Below are positions 14,555-50,912 of a stretch of DNA of 64,000 nt, piece by piece. The stretch is from Bacteroidales bacterium (lineage in GTDB: Bacteria > Bacteroidota > Bacteroidia > Bacteroidales > UBA7960). Each line of letters starts with the position of its first letter. Within the stretch, counting starts at the first letter, position 1. The stretch lies in the NCBI GenBank assembly GCA_003560165.1, contig PWJC01000018.1, positions 1,987 to 65,986 of the forward strand, read 5' to 3'. The notes under the pieces were generated by a model. The model ran no database searches. It saw only the letters and a program-made list of their open reading frames with translations, and had not been told where the DNA came from. The translations under genes and the position numbers were made by a program.

Positions 14555-16975
14555 TCACCCCGCCCGCCGGAAAAACGTTCTGTGAGACGCAAAACTTGCG
14601 GCCGCCAGGGCATAACAAAGTACGCCCAGACCCATAACGGCTTGAAAACCATGCTCAACGGCAATGAGCATGGCCAGGGAGGTACTGATCACCGACAGGG
14701 ATCCGTTTATGCCCCAGGCCCAGGGAATCTGCCCCGGGTCGTAATCCGACAAATAACGGATCCCCAGGGGGAAAAGCATGCCTTTAAAGAACGAGGGAAT
14801 GCCGATCAGCAGCAACCCGAGAAAGATCTTCAGTGCCACCGGGCTGGCGATAGAAAACTTCAGAAAAGGTGTCAGGAAAAAGGTATAGGCCAGCAACCCC
14901 AGGGTCACCAGAAGGGCAATGCCTGCAGGGAAACGGGGCCTGGCCGGAAGTTTTTCCGACCACAGGCTGCCGCATCCGCTGGCAATAAGCATGGTGCTGA
15001 TTACCGCCGATATGGCAAATACCGGCTGGCCGAAATACAACACGAATCGCTGGATGAGGATGATCTCCACAAACATATAGCCGATGCCCAGGGCGGCAAA
15101 GTACAGCAGTGTGCCGCCTTTGCCGCGGTGACCCCTGCGCAGTTTCAGCAGGGGGAGGACAATGAACAGTAGGGCCAGTATGCTGCTTTGGACAAGGGTT
15201 ACCACCACGATAAGGTATCCTAGTTCAAGAAAGGGTATTTGCTCCTGTCCGAAAACCTGCGACAGTTGCCGAAAGTTGGACAATTTCAGAAATTGTCCAA
15301 AATAGGGTTTGCTGTCGGTAGCCGGATGGATCATAAAGCCGTATTCGTCAAGAAAATCCTTGTCGCTTGCCATGATCCTGTCGATATAGGTAAACAAGGC
15401 AGTGTCTTCCAAGCTGTTGTATTGCTGTCTCTCTTCGGGGCGGATGTCGGGCAACAATACCGGGTCGAAAAACATTTCATGACAAAACTGCCTGATGGCC
15501 GCCGTTTCCTGAGGCGTAATGACAGATTTCTTCAACACGAAGGTGATGGTTCCCCAGGAGCGCACGGCGGCAATGTGTTTTTCGGGTGAGGTGATGCCCT
15601 GGCTTTCCAGGGTCATCACAAGGGTTGACAATAGTTTCAGGCTGCTGCGCGAAGGGTAGTCCATCCAGCTTGATACGGCAATCATGCCATCGCTTGCCAG
15701 GCGGCTCCACATCAGCTGAAAGGCCTCCAGTGTCATTCCGTAATTCTCTTCCAGGGCATTGATGCCGACACTGCCTCCGAAGGCCTCCTGCTGCGGCATA
15801 CTGATCAGGTCATAATCGGCAGTGGCCCTGGCGGCGAGAAAATTCCTCGGCTGCACTGCATGCAGATTTACCTTTTCGTGCAAGAACAAATTCCCGCTCA
15901 CAGCAGCAAATTCTTCCTGCAATAGCCCGATCACTCCCGGATGTTCGATGACCGCATCCAAAACGGCGGGATTGTGGGTGAGGGCATGGGACACCGGTGC
16001 TCCTTCAGCGGCGTTCAGCAGGAGCAGGCGTTGCGGTGTCCCGATGGCCCAGGGAAGGGCCTGGCTGGTGTAATCAAGGATGTGCGAAGTTTGCCCCGGC
16101 TGGTAAGTGGGGATGACTCCGAAAAAATCACCGTTGACGTATACCTGTTTTTTGACAGGTACCTCCCCGGTAAATGACAGGCTCAGGGCAGGCGCGAAGC
16201 GAAGCGCCGGGGAGGCCACCACCTGGGTAAACCCATGAACGGCCGGCTTGCTGTGTACAACGCTTGCATCGGGCAGGTTCATTGCGCGTGCCAGGTCTTT
16301 ATACTCCGACATGGGAATATGTCCGGGCCGGCCGATCAGCAGTACCATTACTGCCAGGGCAGTTCCGGCCGCAAACAGGTGCAGGCTGCGGCGTTGGGGG
16401 GGCATGCTGAGCAAACCGGCGGCTACCGGCAGCAAGCCGATCAGTGGCGGAAGATGCGACGGATGCAGCAATCCGAGGGCAAGCAATACAACCACCCCTC
16501 CCACTCCCGAACCCAGAAGGTTGGAAAAATAATGCGTGCCGATCTGCCTGGCGTATTTAATGAACAGCAGGCCAATGGCCAGGGCCCCGGTAAAAAAAGG
16601 GATGAAATAGATCAGGTAATTTGCTGCCAGGACGGGAAACTGAGTTTGCTCTACAAACAACAGGTATACATCGAAGCGAAAGATCTCCATGCGGGTGATA
16701 TGAAAGGCGACCATTATAAATAGCCCGCTCAGGGTCATCAGGAGGGGGATGAGCCATTCCGAATGCCTGAGCAGCCTCTCCCTGGCAAGTGCCAGCAGGG
16801 TTCCGCTTGCGCCGAAACCCAGCATGGCTACCGAAATGATCATGTAGGCGAAATGATGCCACTGCACAATCGAGAGGAGTTGCATCAGGGCAAGCTGGAA
16901 GGCAATGATGGCGGCTGAATGTAGGCCCAGGCTGAAGATCAGCCGCGTACTGGCATTCCCTGACGGCATTTCCAT
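14555..16975 (-). CDS. Polytopic membrane protein with central spermidine-synthase-like (class I methyltransferase fold) domain
   Basis: 806 aa. There are about 7 N-terminal and about 5 C-terminal hydrophobic helices. They flank a soluble region (LLLLNAAEGAPVSHAL...DLISMPQQEAFGGSVGINALEENYGMTLEAF...DGMIAVSSW) that resembles membrane-anchored SpeE-like proteins. The gene starts 4 nt after the pcm stop. Confidence 0.6.
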   Translation of the reverse strand: MEMPSGNASTRLIFSLGLHSAAIIAFQLALMQLLSIVQWHHFAYMIISVAMLGFGASGTLLALARERLLRHSEWLIPLLMTLSGLFIMVAFHITRMEIFRFDVYLLFVEQTQFPVLAANYLIYFIPFFTGALAIGLLFIKYARQIGTHYFSNLLGSGVGGVVVLLALGLLHPSHLPPLIGLLPVAAGLLSMPPQRRSLHLFAAGTALAVMVLLIGRPGHIPMSEYKDLARAMNLPDASVVHSKPAVHGFTQVVASPALRFAPALSLSFTGEVPVKKQVYVNGDFFGVIPTYQPGQTSHILDYTSQALPWAIGTPQRLLLLNAAEGAPVSHALTHNPAVLDAVIEHPGVIGLLQEEFAAVSGNLFLHEKVNLHAVQPRNFLAARATADYDLISMPQQEAFGGSVGINALEENYGMTLEAFQLMWSRLASDGMIAVSSWMDYPSRSSLKLLSTLVMTLESQGITSPEKHIAAVRSWGTITFVLKKSVITPQETAAIRQFCHEMFFDPVLLPDIRPEERQQYNSLEDTALFTYIDRIMASDKDFLDEYGFMIHPATDSKPYFGQFLKLSNFRQLSQVFGQEQIPFLELGYLIVVVTLVQSSILALLFIVLPLLKLRRGHRGKGGTLLYFAALGIGYMFVEIILIQRFVLYFGQPVFAISAVISTMLIASGCGSLWSEKLPARPRFPAGIALLVTLGLLAYTFFLTPFLKFSIASPVALKIFLGLLLIGIPSFFKGMLFPLGIRYLSDYDPGQIPWAWGINGSLSVISTSLAMLIAVEHGFQAVMGLGVLCYALAAASFASHRTFFRRAG

Positions 16976-16978
16976 TGC

Positions 16979-17710
16979 TTACTCTGCTCGTTCAAAAGGC
17001 ACAAAGCGCACGGGCATCAGGCTCCGGGTGGTGATGTCTCCCCCTTCTTTTTTTTCGACCAGCATCAATTGCTGCATCTGGTAGGGAGAACCTACCGGGA
17101 TAATCATACGTCCGCCTTCTCTGAGCTGGCGTATCAGTGGAGGGGGGATGTATTCGGAGGCCGCAGTGACCACAATGGCATCGAAAGGGGCATGTTCTTC
17201 CCATCCATGGTACCCGTCGGCGATCTTTACATGGACATTGTCGTATTGGGCCTCCAGTTTTCGCCTGGCCTGCTGTCCCAGTTCGCTGACGATCTCAATG
17301 GTATATACCCCGTCAATGATCTCTGCCAGGATGGCTGCCTGGTAGCCCGAGCCCGTGCCGATCTCCAGGACCCTATGGTCAGGACGTGGATTAATGATCT
17401 GAGTCATGTAGGCCACCATAAATGGCTGGGAAATAGTTTGCCCGTAGCCTATAGGAAGGGGGCGGTCCTGGTAGGCAAAGCGGCGCTGTGATACAGGCAC
17501 ATAAAGATGCCGGGGCACCCTCCTCATGGCATTCAGGGTGGCCGGGTCGTCGACCCCCCTGCCCTGTATCTGTTCGCGCACCATCCTGTTCCTTTCTCGC
17601 TGAAAAGGGTCGGACGAGGCATTGGCAGCCGGAAACCCAACCCGTGCTCCGGCAAGCATCACCAGGCAGATGCCGGTTAAAATACAACAAAAAGCCTTAT
17701 TCAACCCCAT
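16979..17710 (-). CDS. pcm: Protein-L-isoaspartate O-methyltransferase with N-terminal signal/anchor sequence
   Basis: Motifs VPRHLYVP, GYGQTISQPFMVAYM, VLEIGTGSGYQAAILAEI and DAIVVTAA are present. The start at ATG 17710 is supported by a -7 box at 17755-17762. The N-terminus MGLNKAFCCILTGICLVMLAGA is hydrophobic. Confidence 0.85.
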   Translation of the reverse strand: MGLNKAFCCILTGICLVMLAGARVGFPAANASSDPFQRERNRMVREQIQGRGVDDPATLNAMRRVPRHLYVPVSQRRFAYQDRPLPIGYGQTISQPFMVAYMTQIINPRPDHRVLEIGTGSGYQAAILAEIIDGVYTIEIVSELGQQARRKLEAQYDNVHVKIADGYHGWEEHAPFDAIVVTAASEYIPPPLIRQLREGGRMIIPVGSPYQMQQLMLVEKKEGGDITTRSLMPVRFVPFERAE

Positions 17711-17754
17711 ATGGTCCTCGTATTTGAAATGTACCCTGGCCAGTCTGCTCATTA

Positions 17755-17762
17755 CAAATATA
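17755..17762 (-). promoter_or_regulatory. Bacteroidota-type -7 promoter box (TATATTTG on minus strand)
   Basis: The + strand reads CAAATATA. The box is 45 nt upstream of the pcm ATG at 17710. Confidence 0.4.
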
Positions 17763-17955
17763 CAGGAAGGGAATGGCAAAACCAAACCCCCTTTCCCCTG
17801 TATAAAACCACGGGGTCCGGCCCTGTCCGGCGGATGTTAAAAAACCACAAATAGTAAACAAAAACGCCTGATTGTTTGTATCTTGCATAATAAAAGGAAC
17901 CCAGCCCGGGGTGGCCTCATCCCGGGTGTGAATTCAAAAGACAGGACATAAAAAC

Positions 17956-20361
17956 ATGATTTATTTACAGCATCATTTCCTTCTGCTGCTTTGTGCGCTG
18001 GCCTGGTTGATGCCGGTCAGTGCAAAGGGCCTCTCCGGGGGACAGCAGATGGAAAACCTTGAGATCATTCAACGCCTGGAAGGTTTTTCAAGAAACTTCC
18101 CCCAGCAGAAAGTCTATCTGCATACCGACAAAGACAGCTACCATGCCGGAGAAACCATCTGGATGAAAGCCTATGTGGTGAAGGGAAGCACGCATATGCC
18201 CGATACACTCAGCAGGAACCTTTATGTAGAAATGACCGATCAGGAAGGTAAGCATATCAGCAGCCTGTTGCTCGAAACCGGGGGCGGTACTTCCCATGCC
18301 GATATCCAGCTTCCCGATTCACTACCCGAAGGCAATTATTTCCTTCGGGCCTACACCAATTGGATGCGCAATTTTGACGAGGATCTGTATTTTTCAAAAA
18401 ACATCTTCGTGCACAATACCCTCGAACCGGATTTTATTTCGCGCAGTGACCTCCGGATGAACCGCCGGTTTAACCGGGAACTTTCGGGGCACCGTCAGCA
18501 GATGCAATTCGGCTTTTTCCCCGAGAGTGGCAATATGGTGTACGGACTGGAGAGCCGGGTTGCCTTCAAGGCAAGCAATCGGCTCGGGCAGGGTGAGCCG
18601 GCCAGCGGCAGGGTAGTCGACAACCTGGGTCGCGAAGTGCTGTATTTTGAGTCCCGCCACAACGGCCTGGGCGTTTTTTCCCTTATCCCCCGCGAGGGCG
18701 AACATTATTTTGCAGAAGTGGAATTTGAAAACGGAGCCCGGGAAACTTACCCCCTGCCCAAACCCCTGCCCCATGGTTTTGCCATGCAGGTCACAAGTGA
18801 AAACGAGGACATTTTGGTGGAGGTGAAGGCAAACTTCGATCCGGCCCGTTTTGGCATGCCCGACCAGGTATTTGTCCTTGCCCAGACCCGTGGGCAGGTA
18901 GTTGCTGCCGGTAGCGGGATGCTGGAAAACGGCAGCTTCAGCTTCCGCATCGACGCAAATGAGCTTCCGCCCGGAATTTGTCAGATCACCCTGTTCGACG
19001 GCAACGCATTTCCGGTTGCCGAGCGCCTGGTTTTTTCTGACCCGCAAAGGGTTCCCGAAGTGGGAATAGATGCCTATGTCTCAGAAAACGAAGGGGACAA
19101 TGTGCTTTCTCTTGATGTGTTTTTCGACGATCAGCTGCAGAAAACCCCTGCCGGATCCTATTCCATGTCGGTGGTTGAATGGCCGGTGCCAGAAAAAGAG
19201 ATTCCGCTCAACATCGCTTCCTATCTCTTGCTTGCCAGTGATATTGGCAAAAGCCTGGAAGATCCCTCCTATTACCTTCAGGGCCCGGACCCTGAAAGGA
19301 AGCAGGCTCTCGATCTGCTCATGATGACCCACGGCTGGAGGCGTTTCAGTTGGGAAAAGCTGTTGGCCGGCAGCTATCCGGAAATCACTTACGGAATTCC
19401 CGATGGGTTGTCTGTCGGCGGGAAGGTCCGTGCCCTGGCTTCGGCCGGGAAAGCGGATAATGTTCATGTGGAAATGACCATTGCAGACCGGGAGGCAGAC
19501 AGATACGCCACCCGCACCGATGAGGACGGAAACTTTTTGTTTACCGGTCTTCATTATTACGGTCACTTTAATGTGTTGCTGAACACCCCCTATAACCAGA
19601 ACGGAAGGAATTTGTGGATTGATCTGCATGCCCGCCAATTCAAAGACATTCCCTATCCGTTGAATATGCATACCCGTCCGAACAGCGTACTTTCGCGGGG
19701 ACAGGATTGGGTTCGGGTGAGATCACCGCGAATGCGACTGCGCCCGGCCTCCAGGGCCAGGCCGCAATTGGGAGAGCCGTATTTCGGGCGCCCCGACCAG
19801 GTCATCTACCAGCACGACATTCAGGGCCACTACACCAATATGATCGACCTGTTGCGCGGACGTGTGACAGGCCTTACCATCGAAGGTTCGAGGCTGACAT
19901 TTCGCGGGCAGAGCTACCCTTTCACCGATACCGAACCCTTGTATGTGGTTGATGGGGTCATGGTACATAAATCGACTTTTATGTCGGTGAATCCTGGCGA
20001 TTTGCAGCGGATTGAGATCATGAGGGGCTCCAGTGCCGCTATTTTCGGAAGCCGGGGAGGTGGCGGTGTGCTGATCGCCTATACCAAGAGAGGAGAGGAA
20101 ACAAGCCGCCGCATCTTTGAATTTACCCTTAAGGGTTACGAATACCCCAGGGAATTTTTCCAGACCGTGACAGACATTCCCGGCTACTTACAGGCCGGCA
20201 TTCCCAGAACCCTTTATTGGGAACCTGAGCTCAGTCCGGGAGAGGGCGGCATGACCAGCGTGTACATTCCTGCCCCAAATTTTGGCAATCAGGTAGTAGT
20301 TGTCATTGAGGGCCTCACCGGCAAGGGCGATCCCCTGTTTGTCAGGGCCCGTTTTGACTAG
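17956..20361 (+). CDS. Secreted MG2/alpha-2-macroglobulin-like repeat protein with C-terminal TonB-plug-like domain (paralog 1 of 3)
   Basis: 801 aa with a signal peptide (LLLLCALAWLMPVSA). Motifs include QQKVYLHTDKDSYHAGETIWMKAYVV, LPDSLPEGNY and LMMTHGWRRFSWE. The C-terminal plug-like stretch reads PLYVVDGVMV...NPGDLQRIEIMRGSSAAIFGSRGGGGVLIAYTKRG. No beta-barrel follows. Confidence 0.7.
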   Translation: MIYLQHHFLLLLCALAWLMPVSAKGLSGGQQMENLEIIQRLEGFSRNFPQQKVYLHTDKDSYHAGETIWMKAYVVKGSTHMPDTLSRNLYVEMTDQEGKHISSLLLETGGGTSHADIQLPDSLPEGNYFLRAYTNWMRNFDEDLYFSKNIFVHNTLEPDFISRSDLRMNRRFNRELSGHRQQMQFGFFPESGNMVYGLESRVAFKASNRLGQGEPASGRVVDNLGREVLYFESRHNGLGVFSLIPREGEHYFAEVEFENGARETYPLPKPLPHGFAMQVTSENEDILVEVKANFDPARFGMPDQVFVLAQTRGQVVAAGSGMLENGSFSFRIDANELPPGICQITLFDGNAFPVAERLVFSDPQRVPEVGIDAYVSENEGDNVLSLDVFFDDQLQKTPAGSYSMSVVEWPVPEKEIPLNIASYLLLASDIGKSLEDPSYYLQGPDPERKQALDLLMMTHGWRRFSWEKLLAGSYPEITYGIPDGLSVGGKVRALASAGKADNVHVEMTIADREADRYATRTDEDGNFLFTGLHYYGHFNVLLNTPYNQNGRNLWIDLHARQFKDIPYPLNMHTRPNSVLSRGQDWVRVRSPRMRLRPASRARPQLGEPYFGRPDQVIYQHDIQGHYTNMIDLLRGRVTGLTIEGSRLTFRGQSYPFTDTEPLYVVDGVMVHKSTFMSVNPGDLQRIEIMRGSSAAIFGSRGGGGVLIAYTKRGEETSRRIFEFTLKGYEYPREFFQTVTDIPGYLQAGIPRTLYWEPELSPGEGGMTSVYIPAPNFGNQVVVVIEGLTGKGDPLFVRARFD

Positions 20362-20494
20362 CAAAAAGCAACCGGCGAACTTGTCAGCAGCCTGCCTGAC
20401 TTTGCCTTCCGGGCATCAAAAATATGAAAGGATTGCATGCGTTTGGCATGATTATGGATGCCGTTTTCTTGATGAGCGGGAATCCAAAATCACC

Positions 20495-20502
20495 TATATT
20501 TG
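20495..20502 (+). promoter_or_regulatory. Bacteroidota-type -7 promoter box (TATATTTG)
   Basis: Exact TAnnTTTG match 63 nt upstream of the ATG at 20565. Confidence 0.4.
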
Positions 20503-20564
20503 TGCGTTCCTTACTCCGGGGGTATGCTGCTGCATGCCAAATACTCACCAATCGACACACTACC

Positions 20565-22925
20565 ATGAAACATCTTTTTAAGTTAATGATCATCGCAGTT
20601 TTCCTTGTTCCGGCTGTTTGGCAACATCCGGTCTTTTCGCAGGTTGACTCCGGGGCACAGATCCTGGGAAGCCTTAATCGTGTGCCTGCCGAAATGCCGC
20701 AGCAAAAGCTGTTTCTCCATACCGATAAAGACGAATACCTTGCCGGCGAAACCCTCTGGTTCAAGGCCTATCTGGTGAATGCCTTCTCTCACCAGCCCGA
20801 TCTGCTAAGCACCAACCTGCAGGTCCATCTTCTGAATGCCGACGGAGACCTGGCTGGATTTGCCCTGGTGAAGCTGACCGATGGCTATGGCCATGGTGAT
20901 TTTCAGCTCCCCGACTCCCTGGCGGATGGGAATTATCATATTCTGGCCCATACCGACATGATGGAGGCCTGGGGCAGTGACGAGGTTTTTAAAAAATATT
21001 TTTATGTTCACAATCCCGAAGAGGAAAACTTTATCAGGCGAAGGGGCATCAGATCTAACCGAAGGCTTAACCGAAGCCTTGAAAACCTGGAAGAAAATGT
21101 CCAGTTTGCTGTGTTTCCCGAGGGAGGGAATATGGCCGCCGGACTGGAGAACCGGGTGGCATTCAAGGCCGCCGATGGCCTTGGCCGGGGAATGGATGCC
21201 AGTGGCCGGCTCAGGACAGGGGATGGTACCGAGATCCTGACCTTTACCACCATCCACGATGGGATGGGCGAGTTTGCCTTTGTACCCGAGGCAGGAAAAG
21301 AATACACAGTTCAGGTTGAATTTGCCGACGGTTCAGGCATTCAGAAGGTTCTGCCTGCGGCCCTGGAGGAAGGCTATGTATTGAATGTCCTGCCACGCGA
21401 CGGCAAACTCGAGGTGTCGGTAAGCGCCAATTTTGACTCCAGGCAGTACAACATACCCCCCGACATCTTTATTATTGCCCAGGTCAGGGGACGTGCCTAT
21501 TTTTACGAGCTCGGCATGCTGAGACAGGGACGGTTCAACACCACCATTCCGGCGGATATGCTGCCCACCGGGGTTGCGCAGATCACTGTTTTTGATGCCA
21601 ACAACACTCCCCTTGCCGAACGTCTGGTATTTGTCAATCATCACGACATCGGCGAGGCTTCCATACAAACCTCCACTTCTTCCCTTGGAGGGCAGTCGGC
21701 CATCGTCATGGACCTGACTTTTGACGAACACGAATTCAAGGACAGCAAAACCGGTTATTCGCTGGCCGTTTTGGCCAGCCCTGAGGGTTCGCCCGGCTAT
21801 GGCGAAAACATTGCCACTTCATTTTATCTGACCAGCGAGTTGGGTCATCTGGTGAATGACCCCTGGTATTATTTCCAGGACAATGACGAAGCCCGCCTGG
21901 CGGCCGATCTGCTGATGATGACACATGGCTGGAGAAGGTTCAGTTGGGAGAATATCCTTGCTGGCGACTTTGGCGATGTGGAGGCCAGAAGGGAAGAAAG
22001 GTTGACGATCTCGGGGAAGGTGACCCTGAGCAGGTATGATGATTCGCCCGGCGAACAAACTGTTGAGCTGGGCTTGCTCGATGGGCAGTCGGTGGAGATC
22101 TACAGGTCTACCACCCGGCATACCGGAGAATTTTCTTTTTCCGGTTTGGAGTTTGACGAATTGACCCGGGTGCGCATCACCGTGCCCGCCTCCACCAGGG
22201 AGCGGCGCATGGAAGTTGAGCTTGACCGCCGCGAATACAGGAAACGCCCCCACGTACCGGGCTTTTACAGCCAAAAGCACGAGATATTGCGCAGAGGCCG
22301 CGCCTGGCGAAGGGTTCCCGTGCCTGAAACCTTGCTTCCCGACCCCACCCGCCAAAAGCATACGCGCATTTCGGCTCTGGGTGCCGCCCCCGATTTCGTG
22401 CTCTATATGGACGATGTGAGGGGTGAACCCACCGACATGGCCAGCCTGATGTCGGGCAGGGTGAGGATCAGCCGTGGCCCGGCCAGCATCAACTTGCCCA
22501 CCATACCCCTTTTCCTTATAGACGGGAGTATCGTCAAGCAACCGGTCTTTTATGCATTAAATCCGGTCGACCTGGAGAAGATTGAAGTGTACAGCGGAGC
22601 CTCCACGGCCATTTTTGGTGCAAGGGGTGCAAACGGTGCCATCCATGCCGTAACCAGGACAGGCCTTAATCGCGACGAAACCATGTTCAACGTGACCGGA
22701 TACCATATACCCAGGAAGTTCTTTGTCAACCATATCCATTATTCCGAATATGCCGCACTCGGCCTCAGCAAAACCTTATTGTGGGAAGAGATCCTGGTGC
22801 CCAACAACAACGGAGAAGCCAGATACATGTTCCCCGGCATCGATTCGTTCGATCACGTAAGGGTAGTTATCCAGGGTGTGGACAACAATGGGCACATCAT
22901 CTATACCGAACAGAAACTGCGATAA
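20565..22925 (+). CDS. Secreted MG2-like / C-terminal plug-like protein (paralog 2 of 3)
   Basis: The start is at MKHLFKLMIIAVFLVPAVWQ (signal peptide), downstream of the promoter box. It shares QQKLFLHTDKDEYLAGETLWFKAYLV, LPDSLADGNY, LMMTHGWRRFSWE and PLFLIDGSIV...NPVDLEKIEVYSGASTAIFGARGANGAIHAVTR. Confidence 0.7.
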   Translation: MKHLFKLMIIAVFLVPAVWQHPVFSQVDSGAQILGSLNRVPAEMPQQKLFLHTDKDEYLAGETLWFKAYLVNAFSHQPDLLSTNLQVHLLNADGDLAGFALVKLTDGYGHGDFQLPDSLADGNYHILAHTDMMEAWGSDEVFKKYFYVHNPEEENFIRRRGIRSNRRLNRSLENLEENVQFAVFPEGGNMAAGLENRVAFKAADGLGRGMDASGRLRTGDGTEILTFTTIHDGMGEFAFVPEAGKEYTVQVEFADGSGIQKVLPAALEEGYVLNVLPRDGKLEVSVSANFDSRQYNIPPDIFIIAQVRGRAYFYELGMLRQGRFNTTIPADMLPTGVAQITVFDANNTPLAERLVFVNHHDIGEASIQTSTSSLGGQSAIVMDLTFDEHEFKDSKTGYSLAVLASPEGSPGYGENIATSFYLTSELGHLVNDPWYYFQDNDEARLAADLLMMTHGWRRFSWENILAGDFGDVEARREERLTISGKVTLSRYDDSPGEQTVELGLLDGQSVEIYRSTTRHTGEFSFSGLEFDELTRVRITVPASTRERRMEVELDRREYRKRPHVPGFYSQKHEILRRGRAWRRVPVPETLLPDPTRQKHTRISALGAAPDFVLYMDDVRGEPTDMASLMSGRVRISRGPASINLPTIPLFLIDGSIVKQPVFYALNPVDLEKIEVYSGASTAIFGARGANGAIHAVTRTGLNRDETMFNVTGYHIPRKFFVNHIHYSEYAALGLSKTLLWEEILVPNNNGEARYMFPGIDSFDHVRVVIQGVDNNGHIIYTEQKLR

Positions 22926-22947
22926 ACAGCTTATTGACCAGAGCACC

Positions 22948-22987
22948 GGCCTTCGCATACATGATGCGGAGGCCGTTTGTTTATTTG
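22948..22987 (+). terminator. Rho-independent terminator after paralog 2
   Basis: The hairpin is GGCCTTCGCAT-acatg-ATGCGGAGGCC, with 11 bp and one G-U pair. It is followed by GTTTGTTTATTTG. Confidence 0.55.
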
Positions 22988-23137
22988 CGGCTCAGGAGCC
23001 GCAGCGGGTTCACGGAATGGGGGAGGCCGGGACACTTGAATTTCTGCCGCCTTTTTTGTATATTGCGTTAATGTAACGCATTGAAATTGTGAATAAAACA
23101 ATCATGGTAGCATAATTAAATCAGAGGAACACAACAC

Positions 23138-25543
23138 ATGTACAATCGACAAAAAGCATTGTTTCATTATTTTTTTGCAGTGATATTGGGTGTTTTGCCG
23201 GGAATCAACCTGTCGGCTTCCCTGAAGGCCGATGGGGTGGAAAAACCCCTGGAGGTACTGGAAGCTTTCAGGGAGAAGCTTCCCCAGCAAAAAGTTTTCC
23301 TGCATACAGACAAGGAGAACTACCTGGCCGGAGAGGACATCTGGATCAAGGCATATGTAGTGGACGCTGCCACACACCTGCCCGACACCCTCAGTTCGAA
23401 CCTCCAGGTCGAACTGCTGAATTACAGGGGCGAGTTGGTGGAGCGGATGCTGCTGCGGCTGGATAATGGCCGGGCCCATGGTGAATTCACCCTGGCCGAC
23501 TCCCTGTCGGACGGCAATTATGTGTTGCGTGCACACACCCATTGGATGAAGAATTTCGGAGAGGACTTTTTCTTTGACAGGCATCTTTATGTGAACAATC
23601 CGGAAGAAGCAAACTTTATCCGTTTCGGCGACCGGCGCCAGAACAGACGGTTTAACCGCGAATTGGACGCAAGGGGCGGGCAAATGCAGTTTGCTGTCTT
23701 TCCTGAAGGTGGCCAGCTGGCCAGCGGCCTCGAAAACCGGGTAGCTTTCAAGGCCACCAATATGCTGGGGGCCGGCCTGGACGTCAGAGGAAGGCTTACA
23801 GACAGCCAGGGCAATGAGATCACTGCCTTTGAGAGCCTTCATCTGGGGATGGGTGTGTTTTCTTTCACTCCCCTTGCCGGGGAAAGCTATTTTGCCGAAG
23901 TGGTCTTTCCCGGAGGTGAACACAGCCGGATTCCCCTGCCCGAGGCAAAAACCGGGGCTTACCTGCTGACTGTCGCACAGGATGAGGAGTTCATTCACAT
24001 CGGAGTGAAATCCAACTTCGACCCGGTAGAACACGGATTGCCGCAAACAGTGCACCTGCTTGCCCAGGTCAGAGGAGAGCCCGTCTTTGCCGGGAGCCCC
24101 GTCCTCGAAAATAACCGGCTGTCGGTTGATCTGCCCCTTGGTGAACTGCCTGCCGGCATCGTGCACATCACGCTGTTTGGCCCCAACGCCACACCACTGG
24201 CCGAGCGACTGGTATTTGCCAATCAGGAAACTGTTTCGGCGGTATCCGGGGCAGGTATCTCAGATACTGCTGAACGCGACGGTTCCGGGATGGTCACGGT
24301 GGCGTTCGACAAAAGCGGGGAAGAAGATACCGGCAGCTATTCCCTGGCGGTGGTGGAAGGGGGAGGGCCAGACAATCCACACGCCTCCAATATCCTCACA
24401 TGGTTTTACCTGGAAAACGATCTTGGGCAGGCACTGGAAGACCCGTGGTATTATTTTTCGGAAGATTTCACCGAAAGAAAAGAGGCCCTGGACGTGATGA
24501 TGATGACCCACGGATGGCGGAGGTTCGAATGGGAGTCTTTGCTGGATGGCGAATTCCCGGAGCCTGGCTATCCTGTAATGGACGGACTGTCCATCAGGGG
24601 GCAGGTGGTGCCGCTCGGATCGTCGTATATGCCGGGTCAGCTCACTGTCGAACTGGCTGTGATCAGGAACGAGGAGTATTCGCATTATTCGACCGAGACC
24701 AATTTTGATGGTGAGTTCGTTTTTGAAGGCCTTGATGTGGAAGGTTATTTTCTGGCCGAAATGACCACCAGGGGCGATCTGACCGACCGGAGGTTCCGCA
24801 TCGACATGATCGCCCGTAAATACGACCGCTTCGATTACGAGTACATCATGGATTTCCATACCCAGGCACATAGCGTACTCAGCCGGGGCAGCGATTGGGA
24901 AAGGGTCAGGAGGCCTCTGACGTTGTTATCGGATTACCCCGACGACATCGAAGAAAGAGACCGGTCCGGCACCATTGGTACACCGGATTTTGTCCTGTAC
25001 CTCGACGACGTCCGGATGGAGTACCCCGACCTGGCAAGCCTGCTTCCCGGTCGCATACCGGGATTGCGGACAGACCAGGGCAGTTTTTACTTCCATGGCC
25101 CTTCGAGCATCAATCTGGATACCGAGCCCCTTTTCCTGGTGGAGGGGGTCATTGTAACCCGGGCTTCCTTTTTCAGCCTGAACCCCAAAGATGTGGAGAA
25201 GATAGAAGCCTACCGCGGACCCAGTGCGGCCATTTTCGGACGAAGTGGGGCAAACGGTGCCCTGAATGCGGTCATCAGGACCGGGCGGGGCGAAACCTAT
25301 TATGAATTCCAGCTTCTGGGCTACAATAGCCCCCGCACCTTTTTCCAGTCGGAACTGCCGGCTTACCGCTATGAGCAAAGCGGGGTAGCCCGCACCATTT
25401 TCTGGGAACCCATGATAAAACCGGGTGAAAATGGCAAGCGGCAGTTGGAGTTTGAGCTGCCCGCCGAAGATGTGCTCTACTACATCCTGTTGCAGGGAAT
25501 GGATGCAGAAGGAGGGTTTACGTACCAGTTGCGCATTCTCTGA
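23138..25543 (+). CDS. Secreted MG2-like / C-terminal plug-like protein (paralog 3 of 3)
   Basis: 801 aa. It shares QQKVFLHTDKENYLAGEDIWIKAYVV, LADSLSDGNY, MMMTHGWRRFEWE and PLFLVEGVIV...NPKDVEKIEAYRGPSAAIFGRSGANGALNAVIR. Confidence 0.7.
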   Translation: MYNRQKALFHYFFAVILGVLPGINLSASLKADGVEKPLEVLEAFREKLPQQKVFLHTDKENYLAGEDIWIKAYVVDAATHLPDTLSSNLQVELLNYRGELVERMLLRLDNGRAHGEFTLADSLSDGNYVLRAHTHWMKNFGEDFFFDRHLYVNNPEEANFIRFGDRRQNRRFNRELDARGGQMQFAVFPEGGQLASGLENRVAFKATNMLGAGLDVRGRLTDSQGNEITAFESLHLGMGVFSFTPLAGESYFAEVVFPGGEHSRIPLPEAKTGAYLLTVAQDEEFIHIGVKSNFDPVEHGLPQTVHLLAQVRGEPVFAGSPVLENNRLSVDLPLGELPAGIVHITLFGPNATPLAERLVFANQETVSAVSGAGISDTAERDGSGMVTVAFDKSGEEDTGSYSLAVVEGGGPDNPHASNILTWFYLENDLGQALEDPWYYFSEDFTERKEALDVMMMTHGWRRFEWESLLDGEFPEPGYPVMDGLSIRGQVVPLGSSYMPGQLTVELAVIRNEEYSHYSTETNFDGEFVFEGLDVEGYFLAEMTTRGDLTDRRFRIDMIARKYDRFDYEYIMDFHTQAHSVLSRGSDWERVRRPLTLLSDYPDDIEERDRSGTIGTPDFVLYLDDVRMEYPDLASLLPGRIPGLRTDQGSFYFHGPSSINLDTEPLFLVEGVIVTRASFFSLNPKDVEKIEAYRGPSAAIFGRSGANGALNAVIRTGRGETYYEFQLLGYNSPRTFFQSELPAYRYEQSGVARTIFWEPMIKPGENGKRQLEFELPAEDVLYYILLQGMDAEGGFTYQLRIL

Positions 25544-25553
25544 AGACCACACC

Positions 25554-26669
25554 TCAGGATGCTGAGGAAGGGATACCCAGCAGAAACTGGATGGTGTCTG
25601 TGCCGTCGGGGTAATCCCAGGGCATAGGTCGCTGACTGCTGCCTGCCGGGATAACAGGCATGGTGGCGGTGGTCAGTTCCCGTGGCCCGACTACGCACTG
25701 CAGGCTGCTGAGGTTACGCTGTATAAATGCCTTTGCCGACGCCAGGTTGCTGTATCCCGAATAATGGATTATGCCTACGGGGGATGCAATGGCCGGGCTT
25801 TGCCTGAGCAGGAAGAAGCCGGCATCGGTAAAATGGCTGCCTTGCGCAGACAGCAGTGCTCTGTAGTATTGCAGGTTGTGCAGGTATTTCGGATTTTCTG
25901 CCACTCCGGAAAAGGCGGCCCATGCCTTGGTGATCTGCCCGGGGGCCATCCCGGTGGGTAGCATCAAATGGGATACATTGCGGCATCCGAGGCCGAAATA
26001 CGAAAAAACGTCTTCGCCCAATGCCCTGAGCCCGGCCGCCGTTTCATTACCGGTGATCAGTGCCAGTGAGTTGCGGTTCCGGCGGATCAAGTGTGGGTAC
26101 TGCCCAAAATGATAATCAAAGTATCTTGCCGTATTGTTGCTGCCGGTGGCTATCACCGCATCAAATCCTTGTAGAACGCTGCCTTCGCATGTGATGCGGT
26201 TATGGAATCCCGGCCACAGGGTGCGGAGTATTCGGGCAACGGCCGGAAACAGAAAACGATCGTGCGAGGATAGTTTGGCAATGCAACGGTGGCCGCTGAT
26301 CAGGATACAGAGGGCATCGTGAAATCCCACCAGGGGGATGTTCCCGGCCATGATCACGGCCACTGAACTGGTTTCAGGGGTGGGCTGAAGCAGGGCGGGA
26401 TAAGCACCCACCCACTTTTCAAGCACATCGCGGTTCAGCATCGCCGAGAGCCCATGGAATGCCCTGGCCAGGTTGCCTGTGGTAAACCAGGGATTTTCAT
26501 ACCGGCTTTCGTGCGCTGCCTCTACCAGGGCCTTTACCTCCGGTGATGCCGGCTGGCGGGTGGGGCCTTGCTCCATGACCTGCCCCGCCGCGGCGAAAAA
26601 CCCTCCCAGCCTGCCAAAGGCCTGGATGCATCCTTCCAGTTGCGGTGAACTGTTGCCACTGTTCATCAA
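25554..26669 (-). CDS. Acyl-CoA reductase (LuxC-like) family protein
   Basis: 371 aa. The pattern NPWFT..N........L...L....L..W... IMAGNIPLVGFHD...ILISGH...KLSS.D ... FDAVIATGSNNTARYF is typical of the Bacteroidota LuxC-like group as I remember it. Confidence 0.65.
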   Translation of the reverse strand: MMNSGNSSPQLEGCIQAFGRLGGFFAAAGQVMEQGPTRQPASPEVKALVEAAHESRYENPWFTTGNLARAFHGLSAMLNRDVLEKWVGAYPALLQPTPETSSVAVIMAGNIPLVGFHDALCILISGHRCIAKLSSHDRFLFPAVARILRTLWPGFHNRITCEGSVLQGFDAVIATGSNNTARYFDYHFGQYPHLIRRNRNSLALITGNETAAGLRALGEDVFSYFGLGCRNVSHLMLPTGMAPGQITKAWAAFSGVAENPKYLHNLQYYRALLSAQGSHFTDAGFFLLRQSPAIASPVGIIHYSGYSNLASAKAFIQRNLSSLQCVVGPRELTTATMPVIPAGSSQRPMPWDYPDGTDTIQFLLGIPSSAS

Positions 26670-26685: not shown

Positions 26686-26693
26686 TATCTTTG
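26686..26693 (+). promoter_or_regulatory. Bacteroidota-type -7 promoter box (TATCTTTG)
   Basis: Exact TAnnTTTG match. Its context ttatctttgcaat is identical to the box upstream of the L31 gene. The ATG at 26721 lies 28 nt downstream. Confidence 0.45.
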
Positions 26694-26720
26694 CAATTAA
26701 GAACTGCAAGACAAAGTTAC

Positions 26721-27614
26721 ATGATAAGTTGGTACCAACATATGGTCAGAGGGTCTCTTCTTGTTTTGTCCGCGTGGCTGATGATGTTGACGGCAGCGGC
26801 CGGCCCCCTCTCCGGAAACCCCTTTTTCAGGCAGGCCGAAGACTCCCTGTCGGCCCTGGCCTGGCAAATTGTGGTGCCCCCTGACGATAAAGGTCGTTTG
26901 GAGAATAACCGGCAATTTACGGCTTACTTTAAAGAGGTTTTGCAGTTGCCGGGTGCCTTCGACCATCCTTTCGATTCATTACAAACGGTTTCATTCCTGT
27001 ATTCGCCAGGCAGGGATTTCCGAATCATCAGCTGGTATGTACCCCTTCAGGGGCAGCAGTTCGAATATTTCGGCCTGCTGCAGTTCAGCAAATCCTCAGA
27101 GAACGGGGATTCCCTGATCGTGTTCTCCGACGCAAGCCGGCACATCAATGGGAGAGAGCAGGGAGAACTCGATGCCGGCAGCTGGTATGGTGCCTTTTAT
27201 TACCAGATCAGTTGCCACCCCTTGGCAACTGGCGATATTTGCGCCCTTCTGGGCTGGAAGGGAGACAACCCCTTTACGCGCAAGCGCGTCATAGAACCCC
27301 TGACCATCCAACAGGGCAGGCCGGTATTTGGCAAGGCTGTCTTCGACCAGGAATTTGAAACCGCTCACCGTGTTGTGTTCGAATATTCGGCCAGGGTGTC
27401 GATGAGCCTTGACATTGAACAGGAGTTGGTCTACCGGGGTGAACCCCTGAACGAAGTGATTGTGTTTGACCGGCTGGTCCCAGCGGTCGCGGGCATGGAG
27501 GGTCAGTACCGTTTCTACGTGCCCGAGGCCAATGTGTTCGACGGGATGGTCTTTGAAGCGGGACGCTGGAGATTGATCAGGGATCTGGATGTTCGCATGC
27601 CCGACAGGGATTAA
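26721..27614 (+). CDS. Hypothetical exported protein (conserved Bacteroidota-type, function unknown)
   Basis: ORF with an N-terminal hydrophobic signal (VRGSLLVLSAWLMMLTAAAG). I recognise no motif. The start was placed after the promoter box. Confidence 0.55.
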   Translation: MISWYQHMVRGSLLVLSAWLMMLTAAAGPLSGNPFFRQAEDSLSALAWQIVVPPDDKGRLENNRQFTAYFKEVLQLPGAFDHPFDSLQTVSFLYSPGRDFRIISWYVPLQGQQFEYFGLLQFSKSSENGDSLIVFSDASRHINGREQGELDAGSWYGAFYYQISCHPLATGDICALLGWKGDNPFTRKRVIEPLTIQQGRPVFGKAVFDQEFETAHRVVFEYSARVSMSLDIEQELVYRGEPLNEVIVFDRLVPAVAGMEGQYRFYVPEANVFDGMVFEAGRWRLIRDLDVRMPDRD

Positions 27615-32915: not shown

Positions 32916-33176
32916 ACTATCCGGAAGCCTTTCCCCTGCAGGCTGTTCCATGCAAAACAGCCAATGCCCCTGTTTTTTCATGACAGTTTCATGCTGGCAC
33001 ACTCATTGATTGTATAGAGGACGGGCCCGGACAATCATGGGCAAACAAAGGGGTGTAAGTCTGACCACCTTGATGTTCAAGGCGCTGACAAGGCAGCATG
33101 TTTTCTTTCCGGTAAGGGAACTGGGCGGAAGCGTGACTTTTTATCATGGATTAATGACAATTTGACCGAAAACCTG

Positions 33177-35636
33177 ATGGGTAAACTATTTGACACAGAT
33201 CTTTTTGATTCGCGCGACGGGTTGGACGCCGACAGCGAATTCATTCCATTGCTCTCGACAGAGGAAGAACAACAGATGGCCGCGGAGGAAATCCCCGAAG
33301 AACTGGCCATTCTCCCCCTGAAAAATACCGTTTTATTCCCCGGGGTGGTCATTCCCATAACCGTTAGCCGCGACAAATCCATCAGGCTGGTACGTGAAGT
33401 ATATAAGGAATCCCGCATCATTGGAGTGGTTTCCCAGAAAGACCCCGCCGAGGAAGAACCGGCCTTTGACGACCTGAATGCCATTGGCACGGCTGCCTAT
33501 ATCATCAAGATATTGAAGATGCCCGACGGAAACACCACGGTGATCATTCAGGGGAAAAAGCGCTTTGCGATGAAGGAGGCCACGCAGTTTGAACCTTATC
33601 TGAAAGCCAGGGTGATCTCCTTTGATGCAGCCAAAGAGCCACCTGCCTCCGATAAATTCAAGGCTCTGATCTCCACCCTCAAAGACCTGGCCATCCAAAT
33701 TGTCAAACTTTCTCCCAATGTCCCCAGTGAAGCAGCTTTTGCCCTGAAAAACATTGAGAGTCCGGTTTTTCTGGTGAACTTTATTTCGTCCAACCTCAAT
33801 ATCGAGGTAGACGAAAAGCAGAAACTGCTTGAGATTCCTGATCTGGAAACCCGGGCCAATGTGGTTTTGGGACATTTGAACAGGGAATTGCAGGTAGTGG
33901 AACTGAAAAACCAGATCCAGTAGAAAGTCAAGGTTGACATTGACAAGCAGCAGCGCGACTACATTCTTGGACAACACTTAAAAACCATACAGGAAGAGTT
34001 GGGAGGCAACCCCCATGAGGAACAGATCAGCGAGATGAAGCAAAGGGCGGCAAAAAAAAAATGGGATGCACAGGTCGGAGAAGTGTTCCGAAAGGAGTTG
34101 TCGCGGCTGCAGCGCATGAATCCTGCGGCCATGGAATACACGGTTCAGCTGAACTACCTCGAAACCATGGTGGAGTTGCCCTGGAATGAGTTTACTCCCG
34201 ACAACTTCGATCTGAAAAAGGCACAGCGAATACTCGATCGCGACCATTACGGACTGGAGAAGATCAAGGAGCGCATTATTGAGTACCTGGCAGTTCTCAA
34301 GTTAAAGGGCGACATGAAATCGCCCATATTGTGTTTTGTCGGTCCTCCCGGGGTGGGCAAGACTTCGCTGGGAAGATCCATCGCCCGCGCCATTGGTAGG
34401 AAATACCTCCGGATGTCGCTCGGGGGGCTGAGGGATGAAGCCGAGATCCGGGGACACCGCAAAACCTATGTGGGTGCCATGCCCGGCCGGATCATCCAGA
34501 ATCTGAAGAAAGCCCGGTCGTCAAATCCTGTATTTGTACTCGATGAAGTGGACAAGGTGGGTCACCATACGTTTTCAGGCGATCCTTCCTCTGCCCTGTT
34601 GGAGGTGCTTGACCCGGAACAGAACAACAGCTTTTACGACAACTACCTGGAAGTCGAATACGACCTGTCGAACATCATGTTCATTGCCACCGCCAACACC
34701 CTGTCGGGCATACAGCCGGCACTGCGCGACCGAATGGAAGTGATCGACCTGAGCGGGTATATTGTGGAGGAAAAACAGGAGATAGCCCGCCGTCATCTGA
34801 TCCCCAAGCAGCTGGAGGCCCACGGGCTTAAAAAAGAGCAGTTGAAATTCAGCAAAAAGATACTGGCCCGGATCATTCAGGATTACACCAGGGAGTCGGG
34901 TGTGCGAACACTGGAAAAGACCATTGCCAAGATCATCCGCTCAGCGGCACGCGACATCGTCTTGGGCAATCATCTGGATCCGGTCTTAACAACAGATGAT
35001 CTGAAACGCAACCTGGGCCCCCCGAAATTTGGCCGCGAACAGGATGACCTCAAAGGCCTGGCAGGCGTTATGACCGGATTGGCCTGGACCTACACCGGCG
35101 GTGAAGTGCTCTTTGTGGAGGCAAGCATCAGCAAGGGAAAAGGCAACCTGAACATGACCGGGAACCTGGGCGAGGTGATGAAGGAATCGGCCATTCTCGC
35201 CTTGGAATACCTGAAATCACAGGCCGGATACCTGGACATCGACCCAGGATTGTTCAGTTCGTATAATGTTCACATCCACGTCCCTGAAGGGGCCACGCCC
35301 AAAGACGGACCTTCGGCAGGCATCACTATGTTTGCCGCATTGGCTTCTGTTTTTACCCGGCGAAAGGTGAGGCCCGATGTTGCCATGACGGGAGAGATTA
35401 CCCTCAGAGGGAAGGTATTGCCCGTTGGTGGCATCAAGGAAAAAATACTGGCGGCAAAACGTGCCGGTATCAGGCAGGTCATTCTTTCGGAAGACAATCG
35501 CAAGGATGTGGAGGAGATCAATCCCAAATACCTTAAAGGAGTTGATTTTAAATACATTAGTAAAATGATCGAGGTGGTTGACCTCAGCATGTACAAGGCA
35601 ACCGCAGATCGGCCGGTAAACCTGCAGCCTGTGTAA
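33177..35636 (+). pseudogene. lon: ATP-dependent Lon protease (LonA) interrupted by a single in-frame TAG
   Basis: The N-domain ORF (to 33923) and the AAA+/protease ORF (from 33924; track start 33999) are in the same frame. The junction reads ...[35 protein letters not shown], where Lon homologs as I recall them have Ser (IQSKV...). Walker [10 protein letters not shown], Walker [10 protein letters not shown], catalytic [11 protein letters not shown] and [14 protein letters not shown] are all intact. Confidence 0.75.
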
Positions 35637-47695: not shown

Positions 47696-48733
47696 TTATT
47701 GCTTAATAATCCTTTTGGTATGCCGGTATTGCTCTCCCTCCAGGCTTAGCAGGTAGATGCCCGAAGGCAGACTGCTTAGGTCAATAGGTTGTTCCTGAGG
47801 CAGATGGCCCGACTGCATGAAACGCCCCGCACTATCTGTAACGCGGTAAGTGATACCCCCCTTACCAGCTGTTCCATCAATGGATACGCTGACGCCGTTT
47901 AAGAATGGGTTCGGATAGATGACCGCATCCTGCACCTGACTGATCCATGGGGATTGGGTGGTGTTTCCATCATCCATGGTGGTGATCTGTCCGATGCAGA
48001 TCAGGGCAGGTGTGTTCATCCCCCATTGGCCCACATCGGATGAACTAAGCCTGAGTTCCAGGCTGTCTGTTGCCCCGATCCCGTCAAGGGGGATGCGCTC
48101 CCAGGTATCAACGATGTAGTTTTTACGACTGTCTTCAAAGCGATAGTCTGCCAGGTAGAATTCCACCTTTTGGTCTTCCAGGGCCTCTCCATGGCGCCAG
48201 CCGACAAGGGTCAGCAAAAACCAATCGGGATCATTTCCGTCTTCACCTCCGAATTTTTTTGAGAACTCATCTCCGTTGAGCATAGCCAGGGCTGCGTAAG
48301 TGGTATTGCTTACCACCATGTCCTTCAGGGAACCTCCCTTTGCCGGACCCTTAGGAATAAGGAACAGGCTGTTGGCAAAGGTAAGCGGGTCGGACACATA
48401 GGCAACGGCATAATTCGTGTTCCCTTCGTAACCACCTCCGGTAACAACACTGTATTGATTGCCAATTCCGGGGGTTTCGTTATCTGTGGTGCTGGACAGT
48501 GAGAATCCACTCCAGCTGTAAAGTTCATCGGTCCACCAGGTGAAATAATTTGGAAAAAACAGATATCCGCTAACAAATCCTCCGGAACCATCCGAGCCAT
48601 TCCAGTAAGTTTCCGGCTCCAGTTCCATTTCGTCGAAATTGGCAACTGTCTGGGCAGTGAGTTGGCCGGTTGTTATGCTTATTGACCATAGCATAAGGGA
48701 CAACGCAATAATATGCGTGGTAAAGTTCGTCAT
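47696..48733 (-). CDS. DUF4465-like domain protein with T9SS type A C-terminal sorting domain
   Basis: YWNGSDGSGGFVSGYLFFPNYF...WSGFSLSSTTDNETPGIGNQYSVVTGGGYEGNTNYAVAYV matches my memory of DUF4465. The C-terminal VIYPNPF...GIYLLSLEGEQYRHTKRIIKQ is a T9SS CTD. There is a 4-nt overlap (ATGA) with the receptor gene. Confidence 0.6.
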   Translation of the reverse strand: MTNFTTHIIALSLMLWSISITTGQLTAQTVANFDEMELEPETYWNGSDGSGGFVSGYLFFPNYFTWWTDELYSWSGFSLSSTTDNETPGIGNQYSVVTGGGYEGNTNYAVAYVSDPLTFANSLFLIPKGPAKGGSLKDMVVSNTTYAALAMLNGDEFSKKFGGEDGNDPDWFLLTLVGWRHGEALEDQKVEFYLADYRFEDSRKNYIVDTWERIPLDGIGATDSLELRLSSSDVGQWGMNTPALICIGQITTMDDGNTTQSPWISQVQDAVIYPNPFLNGVSVSIDGTAGKGGITYRVTDSAGRFMQSGHLPQEQPIDLSSLPSGIYLLSLEGEQYRHTKRIIKQ

Positions 48734-50661: not shown

Positions 50662-50721
50662 GCGATTGGTTTCCGGTGAATTTTTGCCTTTTTCCCGAAA
50701 GCTGCAAATCAATAATAAACG

Positions 50722-50912
50722 CACAGGCAGGTCTTCTGACTTACTCCATGTTTACCGCCTTCCCACCTCTTTGGGCAGTGGCATTGCAGAGGTAAACATT
50801 AATCAAGGAGCTTACAGCAGCGGGAACTGTCCGGGATTCTCACCCGATTCCCTTTTCATCCGGTTAATCCGGTAGGATGCCGGAACCTGTACCCGGCAAA
50901 GGTAGGCAAAAA
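50722..50912 (-). promoter_or_regulatory. Cobalamin (AdoCbl/B12) riboswitch
   Basis: The minus-strand RNA reads ...AAAAGGGAAUCGGGUGAGAAUCCCGGACAGUUCCCGCUGCUGUAAGC...AUGCCACUGCCC...GGUGGGAAGGCGG...AGUCAGAAGACCUGCC. The conserved GGGAA / GGUGAGAAUCC / GCCACUG elements and the B12 box (50726-50741) are all present. Confidence 0.85.

Follow-up and report, generated by a model that had tools for sequence, protein, structure and literature searches.

A tandem array of three Bacteroidales genes encoding macroglobulin-like proteins with a C-terminal SusC/RagA-type plug and no barrel

The stretch of DNA analysed here, a 64-kb window of contig PWJC01000018.1 from a Bacteroidales bacterium, carries on its + strand three consecutive open reading frames (ORFs), at 17956-20361, 20424/20565-22925 and 23138-25543, with products of 801, 786 and 801 aa. 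A first-pass annotation, made from the sequence alone, had read them as same-strand homologous genes; the ORFs lie at these coordinates, and a three-way alignment showed them to be conserved over their full length. They are paralogs, each of which has diverged and been maintained in its own right, and belong to a very large Bacteroidota family in which an array of macroglobulin (MG)-type domains precedes the plug of a TonB-dependent transporter (TBDT); their products are neither transporters nor receptor fragments nor canonical macroglobulins. We refer to this as the MG2-plug family, to which the window proteins belong as judged by collinear homology over the full length and by a shared domain order and protein length. 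The best explanation we can offer, in which we place about even confidence, is that they are periplasmic, non-transporting envelope proteins derived from the TonB uptake apparatus and possibly still linked to it.

Domain architecture and the missing barrel

All three copies passed the Pfam gathering cut-offs both for MG2 (PF01835; 34.6-40.1 bits against 32.8) and for Plug (PF07715; 25.9-45.3 bits against 23.9). The two matches lie at aa 52-135 and aa 615-705 in paralog 1, at aa 48-131 (window 20706-20957, + strand) and aa 646-692 (22500-22640, +) in paralog 2, and at aa 52-135 (23291-23542, +) and aa 631-708 (25028-25261, +) in paralog 3. We modelled full-length copy 1 with AlphaFold2, using an alignment of 99 family sequences as input, and assigned secondary structure by DSSP; the model reached a predicted local distance difference test score (pLDDT) of 89 and a predicted TM-score (pTM) of 0.83.

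Paralog 1 (17956..20361, +; identical to a public protein, P0001) opens with a signal peptide read from the sequence (17956..18027, aa 1-24; h-region FLLLLCALAWLM, VSA/K), which is followed in the model by a helix at aa 26-47 and by the MG2 domain (18106..18414, aa 51-153; PF01835 E 6.4e-9, 36.5 bits), modelled as a beta-sandwich. DSSP and Foldseek place further macroglobulin-type beta-sandwiches at 18502..19182 (aa 183-409, as 183-266, 275-361 and 369-409), and a conservation profile marks aa 362-419 as the most variable part of the protein. Model and conservation together define a helical insert with the LLMMTHGWRRFSWE motif at 19213..19365 (aa 420-470), in which W461 and R463 (LLMMTHGWRRF) are invariant in the 99 sequences.

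The C-terminal half begins with a modelled CarboxypepD_reg-like sandwich (19408..19626, aa 485-557), which would correspond to the N-terminal extension domain of SusC. The corresponding Pfam family, PF13620, is sub-threshold at aa ~485-545 of the window copies (15-19 bits, cut-off 32.3); precomputed matches to it exist in many homologues, and the relatives scored here lay above the window copies and still under the cut-off. A linker (19627..19788, aa 558-611) follows, recognised in column statistics by the clade motif RGxxWxRxxRP, and the model has no secondary structure at aa 558-614. The plug itself, an alpha/beta domain, occupies 19789..20103 (aa 612-716; Pfam Plug E 1.4e-11, profile positions 10-107 of 107), and DSSP and an alignment of the family C-termini show that a last beta-sandwich with a TLYWEP motif (20113..20355, aa 720-800) takes the barrel's place. 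The 60-80 residues that the first-pass annotation had allowed past the plug were slightly too few, the figure being ~85 past the plug core and ~95 past the Pfam match. The C-terminal position of the plug comes solely from the placing of the SusC front end as a whole, from CarboxypepD_reg-like domain through linker to plug, after the MG array.

That the C-terminal block resembles a plug had been proposed from its motifs, and Pfam, profile and structure comparisons bear this out. Searched against the PDB with phmmer, SusC homologues and RagA were matched over plug residues only, the plug of paralog 1 aligning with residues 139-239 of SusC homologue 5t3r_D at E 7.6e-8, and a profile of 99 family members recovered RagA/SusC plugs at E 8e-18 and siderophore and B12 receptors at ~1e-6 to 1e-5. 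Given the better profile E for RagA/SusC than for other TBDT classes, the plug is specifically of the SusC/RagA type. We modelled aa 605-722 of copy 1 separately (pLDDT 82.7), and all 50 PDB matches listed for this fragment were TonB-dependent transporters (TMq up to 0.72), among them SusC 8aa4_A (E 2.6e-6, TMq 0.70), RagA 6sml_B (TMq 0.72), CirA, FepA and BtuB. The opposite outcome, a C-terminal block that is not plug-like, was checked by structure prediction and failed: the block is a plug. Within the family protein the plug is among the best-conserved segments, its motif GxSAAIFGSRGxxG having the third-highest information content per 10-residue block in the conservation profile and its TBDT-type RG and SRG arginines being at least 90% conserved.

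The barrel family PF00593 gave no match at E<=1 in the window copies, while the true TBDT of the same window, our positive control, was matched. TIGR04056, a model of 981 positions, scored the window copies at 42-60 bits against a cut-off of 368 and over model positions 104-217 only. Together with the beta-sandwich that follows the plug in the model, these results agree with the earlier statement that no barrel is present, and since there is no membrane barrel, the window proteins cannot be transporters.

The N-terminal part had been likened to MG2 and alpha-2-macroglobulin (A2M) proteins, rightly so in view of the Pfam MG2 matches and of a Foldseek search of the full copy 1 model against the PDB, which returned A2M, ECAM, Salmonella A2M, CD109, TEP1, A2ML1 and C3/C4/C5 at E 1e-15 (best 1.3e-15) to 1e-12. 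The TM-scores of these same matches were low (TMq 0.10-0.33), and therefore the domain type is common to both and the arrangement is not. The thioester motif CxEQ is absent from the three copies, copies 2 and 3 being without any cysteine, and at E<=1 Pfam found in the window copies no macroglobulin-family domain besides MG2, with no A2M_BRD, receptor-binding or CUB match.

Family, TonB box and cellular location

The exact protein, together with the same three-gene array, was found in an ENA assembly, in two NCBI metagenome-assembled genomes (MAGs; GCA_007134595.1 and GCA_007121345.1) and in a Logan assembly. Homologues number at least 1,589; nearly every one listed has ~800 aa (770-850 aa), most come from Bacteroidales MAGs, and E ranges from 0 to 1e-136, mostly at 94-100% query coverage. 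Those that bear a name are called 'TonB-dependent receptor plug domain-containing protein' or 'hypothetical protein', so that the architecture is already visible to annotation pipelines under a generic name and is otherwise undescribed; a literature candidate with an 'MG2 domain' was rejected, being a full-length 1,864-aa macroglobulin of Tannerella and not this architecture. An exhaustive profile search of 1.84 billion representatives (50%-identity clusters) returned 9,948 cluster representatives at E<=1e-30, and a scan with one genome per species gave at least 589 genomic loci in Bacteroidales, Cytophagales, Sphingobacteriales, Chitinophagales, Saprospiraceae and Flavobacteriales. Carrier genera include Spirosoma, Hymenobacter, Dyadobacter, Larkinella and Pontibacter (Cytophagales), Pedobacter (Sphingobacteriales) and Puia (Chitinophagales).

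No barrel was found in the longer members examined (1,043-1,789 aa), which have extra N-terminal domains or a second unit instead, and one relative gave a near-threshold A2M_BRD match (22.3 bits against 22.7). At least 12 of the 150 best representatives are fused two-unit proteins of ~1,600-1,860 aa; four whose sequences were read (P0121, P0123, P0125 and P0139, ~1,750-1,800 aa) consist of two full units head to tail with no internal signal peptide, and in several of these the plug motifs are degenerate. By Rosetta-stone logic, the fusions suggest that their units act together. Most loci have a single gene, and several unrelated lineages have two or three genes in tandem: relatives sharing the flanking genes of the window array have one copy (L025, L027 and L046) or two (L007), and separate triplications are present at L070 and at L017/L020.

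In SusC/RagA-type TBDTs a TonB box lies upstream of plug strand 1. The sequence PDQVIY was rejected as a candidate, because in the alignment it falls on plug strand 1 itself (Pfam profile position 10), and column statistics and a comparison of 345 family linkers found no TonB-box-like motif in those of the window copies. Within the C-terminal half of the window clade's proteins, conservation and model confidence are lowest over the 20 residues that precede plug strand 1, a proline- and arginine-rich stretch that comes after the clade-specific RGDDWxRxxRP. At the same position, members from Cytophagales, Sphingobacteriales, Saprospiraceae and others have LL(K/Q/D)EV(T/V)(V/I)(K/R)(A/G)KK, and the strict TonB-box motif occurs in 54 of 345 plug regions, mostly outside Bacteroidales. 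In one relative, P0259, phmmer aligned MLQEVVVTA with MVDEVVVTG of 5t3r_D, a stretch that we take to be the SusC TonB-box position, and the TIGR04056 match of this relative reaches upstream to model position 71. Since relatives keep a TonB box at the homologous position, the family appears to have inherited a complete SusC front end, and the window lineage to have later lost the box.

The proteins had also been called secreted, a claim of which only part survives: signal peptides of the Sec type can be read from the sequences, and the lack of a lipobox or of a type IX secretion system (T9SS) C-terminal domain points to the periplasm rather than to the surface. Lipoprotein export and the T9SS are the two known surface routes in Bacteroidota. 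The N-termini of the family look like signal peptides, and of 99 sequences only 4 match a lipobox loosely, one of these being an over-extended start; on reading the three window copies we found no lipobox in them. Neither Por_Secre_tail nor the type B T9SS domain matched the window copies at E<=1 in Pfam or NCBIfam, while PF18962, as positive control, was matched at window 47696-48733. A TonB box is useful only in the periplasm. On these three grounds (no lipobox, no T9SS C-terminal domain, and a TonB box in relatives that could meet TonB only there) the proteins are most likely periplasmic, as soluble proteins or, for some relatives, anchored through an N-terminal helix that is not cleaved.

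The gene array and its surroundings

Pairwise amino acid identities are 37.1% (copies 1-2), 42.2% (1-3) and 40.8% (2-3) over ~780 aligned residues. By eye, copies 1 and 3 had been estimated to be about half identical over their N-terminal ~110 residues; we obtained 42.5% for residues 1-110 and 52.7% for residues 49-160, so that the estimate is fair only past the signal peptide. The shared motifs pointed out at the same time are found in all copies with small deviations, namely MQFGFFPESG and GLESRVAFKA in copy 1 and LADSL and AIFGRSGANG in copy 3. At the DNA level, likeness between copies (67-79% over 55-110 nt) is confined to the most conserved motifs, from which it follows that the duplication is old, and recent duplication or gene conversion was rejected on the same ground. 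In a neighbour-joining tree each window copy groups with its positional equivalent in L005, a related MAG, and since this pairing by position holds even though copy 1 of L005 is only 52% identical, the triplication predates the split from that lineage. Twenty-three residues are invariant in the 99 family sequences, and all three window copies keep them. The positional pairing and these residues sustain the earlier view of an old, maintained triplication.

Copy 2 (20565..22925, +; 786 aa) is open from 20424, and public gene calls use an 825-aa form. The ATG at 20565 opens a signal peptide, MKHLFKLMIIAVFLVPAVWQHPVFSQ, that aligns with the family N-termini, no counterpart of the upstream 47-aa extension was found in homologues, and a TAnnTTTG box, TATATTTG (20495..20502, +), falls within that extension. 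On the basis of these three observations we took 20565 as the start, 63 nt downstream of the box. A promoter box before copy 2 had been proposed; the box, of the Bacteroidota -7 type, is present as a sequence pattern only, and the pattern TAnnTTTG occurs 12 times on the + strand of the 64-kb window. The terminator proposed after copy 2 has its counterpart in a strong terminator-like hairpin with a T tract at 22947..22985 (+; 12-bp stem with 8 G-C pairs). Paralog 3 (23138..25543, +; 801 aa) follows.

The array is flanked on one side by a divergent gene for a protein-isoaspartate methyltransferase (PCMT; 16979-17785, -), beside the gene of a polytopic membrane protein of 806 aa that has a soluble middle region and no Pfam match (14555-16975, -), and on the other by two unannotated genes followed by serine-pathway-like genes. 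The 806-aa ORF was rejected as a fourth paralog, being unrelated. The pair of PCMT and 806-aa genes, divergent from MG2-plug genes, is conserved in six loci of the same Bacteroidales clade. The two genes on the other side (25554-26669, -, and 26691-27614, +), neither with a significant Pfam match, though one matches a LuxC-like family faintly, are syntenic with the array in six related loci. The synteny of these flanks holds within the window's own clade only.

Across 83 loci, BLAST clusters of 1,010 ORFs revealed no conserved operon partner, no neighbour family being present in more than 14 loci and each being clade-limited; the neighbours are of housekeeping type rather than polysaccharide utilisation loci. 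Six loci carry a TBDT gene, a DUF4249 gene and a family member in this order on one strand, with short gaps or overlaps: L015 (739-7105), L071 (3893-10316), L085 (3928-10265), L086 (3913-10349) and, on the minus strand, L074 and L011. They come from Bacteroidales, a Sphingobacteriales MAG, Puia and an unclassified Bacteroidetes MAG, and their TBDTs, of ~900 aa, carry CarbopepD_reg_2 and Plug domains of their own. The operon-linked copies form a basal group in the neighbour-joining tree. DUF4249 lipoproteins have been proposed as lids of non-SusC TBDTs (bioRxiv 10.1101/2023.03.17.533168).

Other unannotated genes recur near family members. A 255-aa gene lies just upstream of the TBDT in L085 and L086, and a 240-aa gene adjoins the family copies in L015 and L074. 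In one Bacteroidales clade only (L016, L017, L020 and L029), an extracytoplasmic function (ECF) sigma factor gene and a 450-aa gene, possibly for an anti-sigma factor, are divergent from the MG2-plug genes.

Two features lie elsewhere in the window. The lon protease gene (33162-35636, +) appears to be broken by a single in-frame TAG at 33921-33923, which leaves two ORFs of 253 aa and 545 aa in one frame; the syntenic Lon of a related MAG is intact at 818 aa, and the TAG could be a sequencing error, a nonsense mutation or a site of read-through. A cobalamin riboswitch (50709-50905, -; 106 bits) immediately precedes the gene of a complete TonB-dependent receptor, Plug and barrel included (48730-50724, -), which is followed by a DUF4465 protein with a T9SS C-terminal sorting domain (47696-48733, -). 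From its sequence, the region 47696-50905 looks like a B12-regulated uptake operon whose accessory protein is a T9SS cargo rather than a lipoprotein.

Interpretation and comparison with known systems

In our explanation, a signal peptide is followed by the MG array with its conserved helical insert, then by the SusC/RagA-type front end, and finally by an MG-like sandwich at the place of the barrel. The mode of action is the weakest step: the plug would probably serve as a soluble protein-interaction or ligand-holding module on the MG scaffold. The family would have been ancestrally coupled to the TonB uptake apparatus, those members that bear a TonB box would be TonB clients, and one subfamily would be coupled to a particular TBDT and its DUF4249 lid, with which it would be co-transcribed. 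The window clade appears to have swapped the TonB box for the RGDDWxRxxRP linker motif, and given this replacement its copies probably act without TonB; the three copies may cooperate, given that fused two-unit forms of the protein are found elsewhere.

Several observations weigh against this explanation. The window copies lack a TonB box, so that for them any link to TonB is indirect, and among the Pfam families of 150 immediate neighbours (157 families, none in more than 12 neighbours) there is no TonB, ExbB or ExbD. The link to TBDT and DUF4249 genes is seen in only 6-7 of the 83 loci, and the subfamily concerned has the most degenerate plug, with no Pfam Plug match. Some relatives have an extended hydrophobic N-terminus in which no cleavage site is obvious and which could serve as a membrane anchor. 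AlphaFold may reproduce the plug fold from homologous structures on which it was trained, and in the literature we found nothing on the MG2-plug family, its function or its location.

A bolder proposal, possible and yet doubtful in our judgement, is that the family is a previously unrecognised class of soluble periplasmic TonB clients, with a SusC-type TonB box and plug and no barrel, in which TonB is used for a non-transport purpose. Force-dependent release of a ligand held between plug and MG scaffold, or titration or regulation of a limited TonB pool, would be examples, and the box-less window copies would be derived, TonB-independent forms that may assemble together.

It was not unreasonable to consider also that the proteins are thioester-less, A2M-like periplasmic protease traps or inhibitors, in which the MG array would cage a protease after cleavage of an exposed variable segment, the paralogs would differ in bait and the plug would be structural only. 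The fold likeness to ECAM, Salmonella A2M, CD109, TEP1 and C3-C5 (E 1e-15 to 1e-12) is consistent with this, as are the near-threshold A2M_BRD match of one relative (22.3 against 22.7 bits) and the fact that the least conserved internal segments, aa 361-400 and 591-610, are those where the paralogs differ most (20-28% identity). However, the proteins have half the size of bacterial A2Ms, lack CxEQ and, in copies 2 and 3, any cysteine, and have no A2M_BRD or other macroglobulin domain besides MG2 in Pfam; the low Foldseek TM-scores (0.1-0.33) again indicate a shared domain type and not a shared arrangement, and the strong conservation of the plug and the TonB box of relatives are left unexplained, so that we regard a trap as unlikely. 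We think it rather unlikely, too, that these are cell-surface or secreted binding proteins of an adhesin or nutrient-capture type, exported over the outer membrane by an unrecognised route. Ig-like or MG arrays and CarboxypepD_reg domains are common in Bacteroidota surface proteins, paralog expansion is typical of such proteins, and one subfamily is linked by operon to a TBDT and a surface lid; on the other hand, neither a lipobox nor a T9SS C-terminal domain was found in the window copies, though the Pfam model for the latter works in this genome, the TonB box of relatives is sensible only in the periplasm, and the neighbours are housekeeping-type genes instead of polysaccharide utilisation loci.

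Quite improbable, to our mind, is a plug acting in trans, inserted into a separate barrel-only outer-membrane protein or sealing the periplasmic mouth of another channel as part of a two-piece gated pore. TBDT-type motifs persist in the plug, the RG and SRG arginines among them being at least 90% conserved, the predicted plug can be superposed on plugs that sit inside barrels, and some members are co-transcribed with an outer-membrane TBDT, but no barrel-only partner is conserved beside the genes, the operon-linked TBDTs have their own CarbopepD_reg_2 and Plug domains, and the folded domains on both sides of the plug, with a pTM of 0.83, suggest a compact protein rather than a free plug. Finally, the idea that assembly error or decay has turned ordinary SusC-like receptor genes into these fragments or pseudogenes is refuted and retains practically no credibility. 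The NCBI generic name that homologues bear is indeed also given to receptor fragments; nevertheless, an identical gene structure is present in four independent assemblies, relatives of the same length number in the thousands, the plug is succeeded by a conserved folded domain, the first 600 aa bear no relation to receptors, and the 23 invariant residues are retained in all three copies. The first-pass annotation had likewise doubted that these were split receptors.

A plug enclosed by a barrel is what defines TonB-dependent transport. In the MG2-plug family the barrel is missing, and the plug, conserved no less strongly than any other part of the protein, comes with its upstream domain and, in many lineages, with a TonB box, in ~10,000 clusters across the phylum. 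If the proteins do bind TonB, then TonB serves clients that are not transporters, and nutrient uptake may draw on a regulated or shared TonB pool; otherwise, the family shows that the plug folds stably on its own and is open to reuse. Bacteroidota dominate polysaccharide turnover in gut, soil and sea, and this very common envelope protein of theirs can be studied in culturable carriers such as Spirosoma, Dyadobacter, Hymenobacter and Pedobacter.

Among known systems, pairs of a TBDT and a DUF4249 lid (e.g. BT2172/BT2173) have members of the basal MG2-plug subfamily directly downstream on the same strand in several orders, whereas the window array is not beside such a pair, its neighbours being PCMT and unannotated genes. 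Barrel-less plug proteins have been mentioned once that we could find: Price and Arkin (bioRxiv 10.1101/2023.03.17.533168) noted that BT1139, BT4200 and BT4324 of B. thetaiotaomicron have PF07715 but no beta-barrel in AlphaFold models, and these were 'not considered further'. By description they resemble the MG2-plug proteins in having a plug and no barrel. With the SusC/RagA transporters (TIGR04056; e.g. BT1763 and RagA), the segment from the CarboxypepD_reg-like domain to the plug appears to be homologous, corresponding to their N-terminus. In contrast to these transporters, the MG2-plug proteins have no 22-strand barrel, and the cassette follows a 480-aa MG array and is itself followed by a beta-sandwich; the window copies, moreover, have neither a TonB box nor an adjacent SusD-like gene. 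The bacterial A2Ms (E. coli ECAM/YfhM and Salmonella A2M) and the A2M/C3 family share with the window proteins the MG2 domain and a series of MG-type sandwiches, and are their top structural matches; the bacterial A2Ms would share a periplasmic location as well. Compared with this family (~1,500-1,900 aa), the window proteins, at 786-801 aa, have about half the length, no thioester and an arrangement that is not superposable, and the MG2-plug proteins carry the plug of a transporter, as none of the described macroglobulins does.

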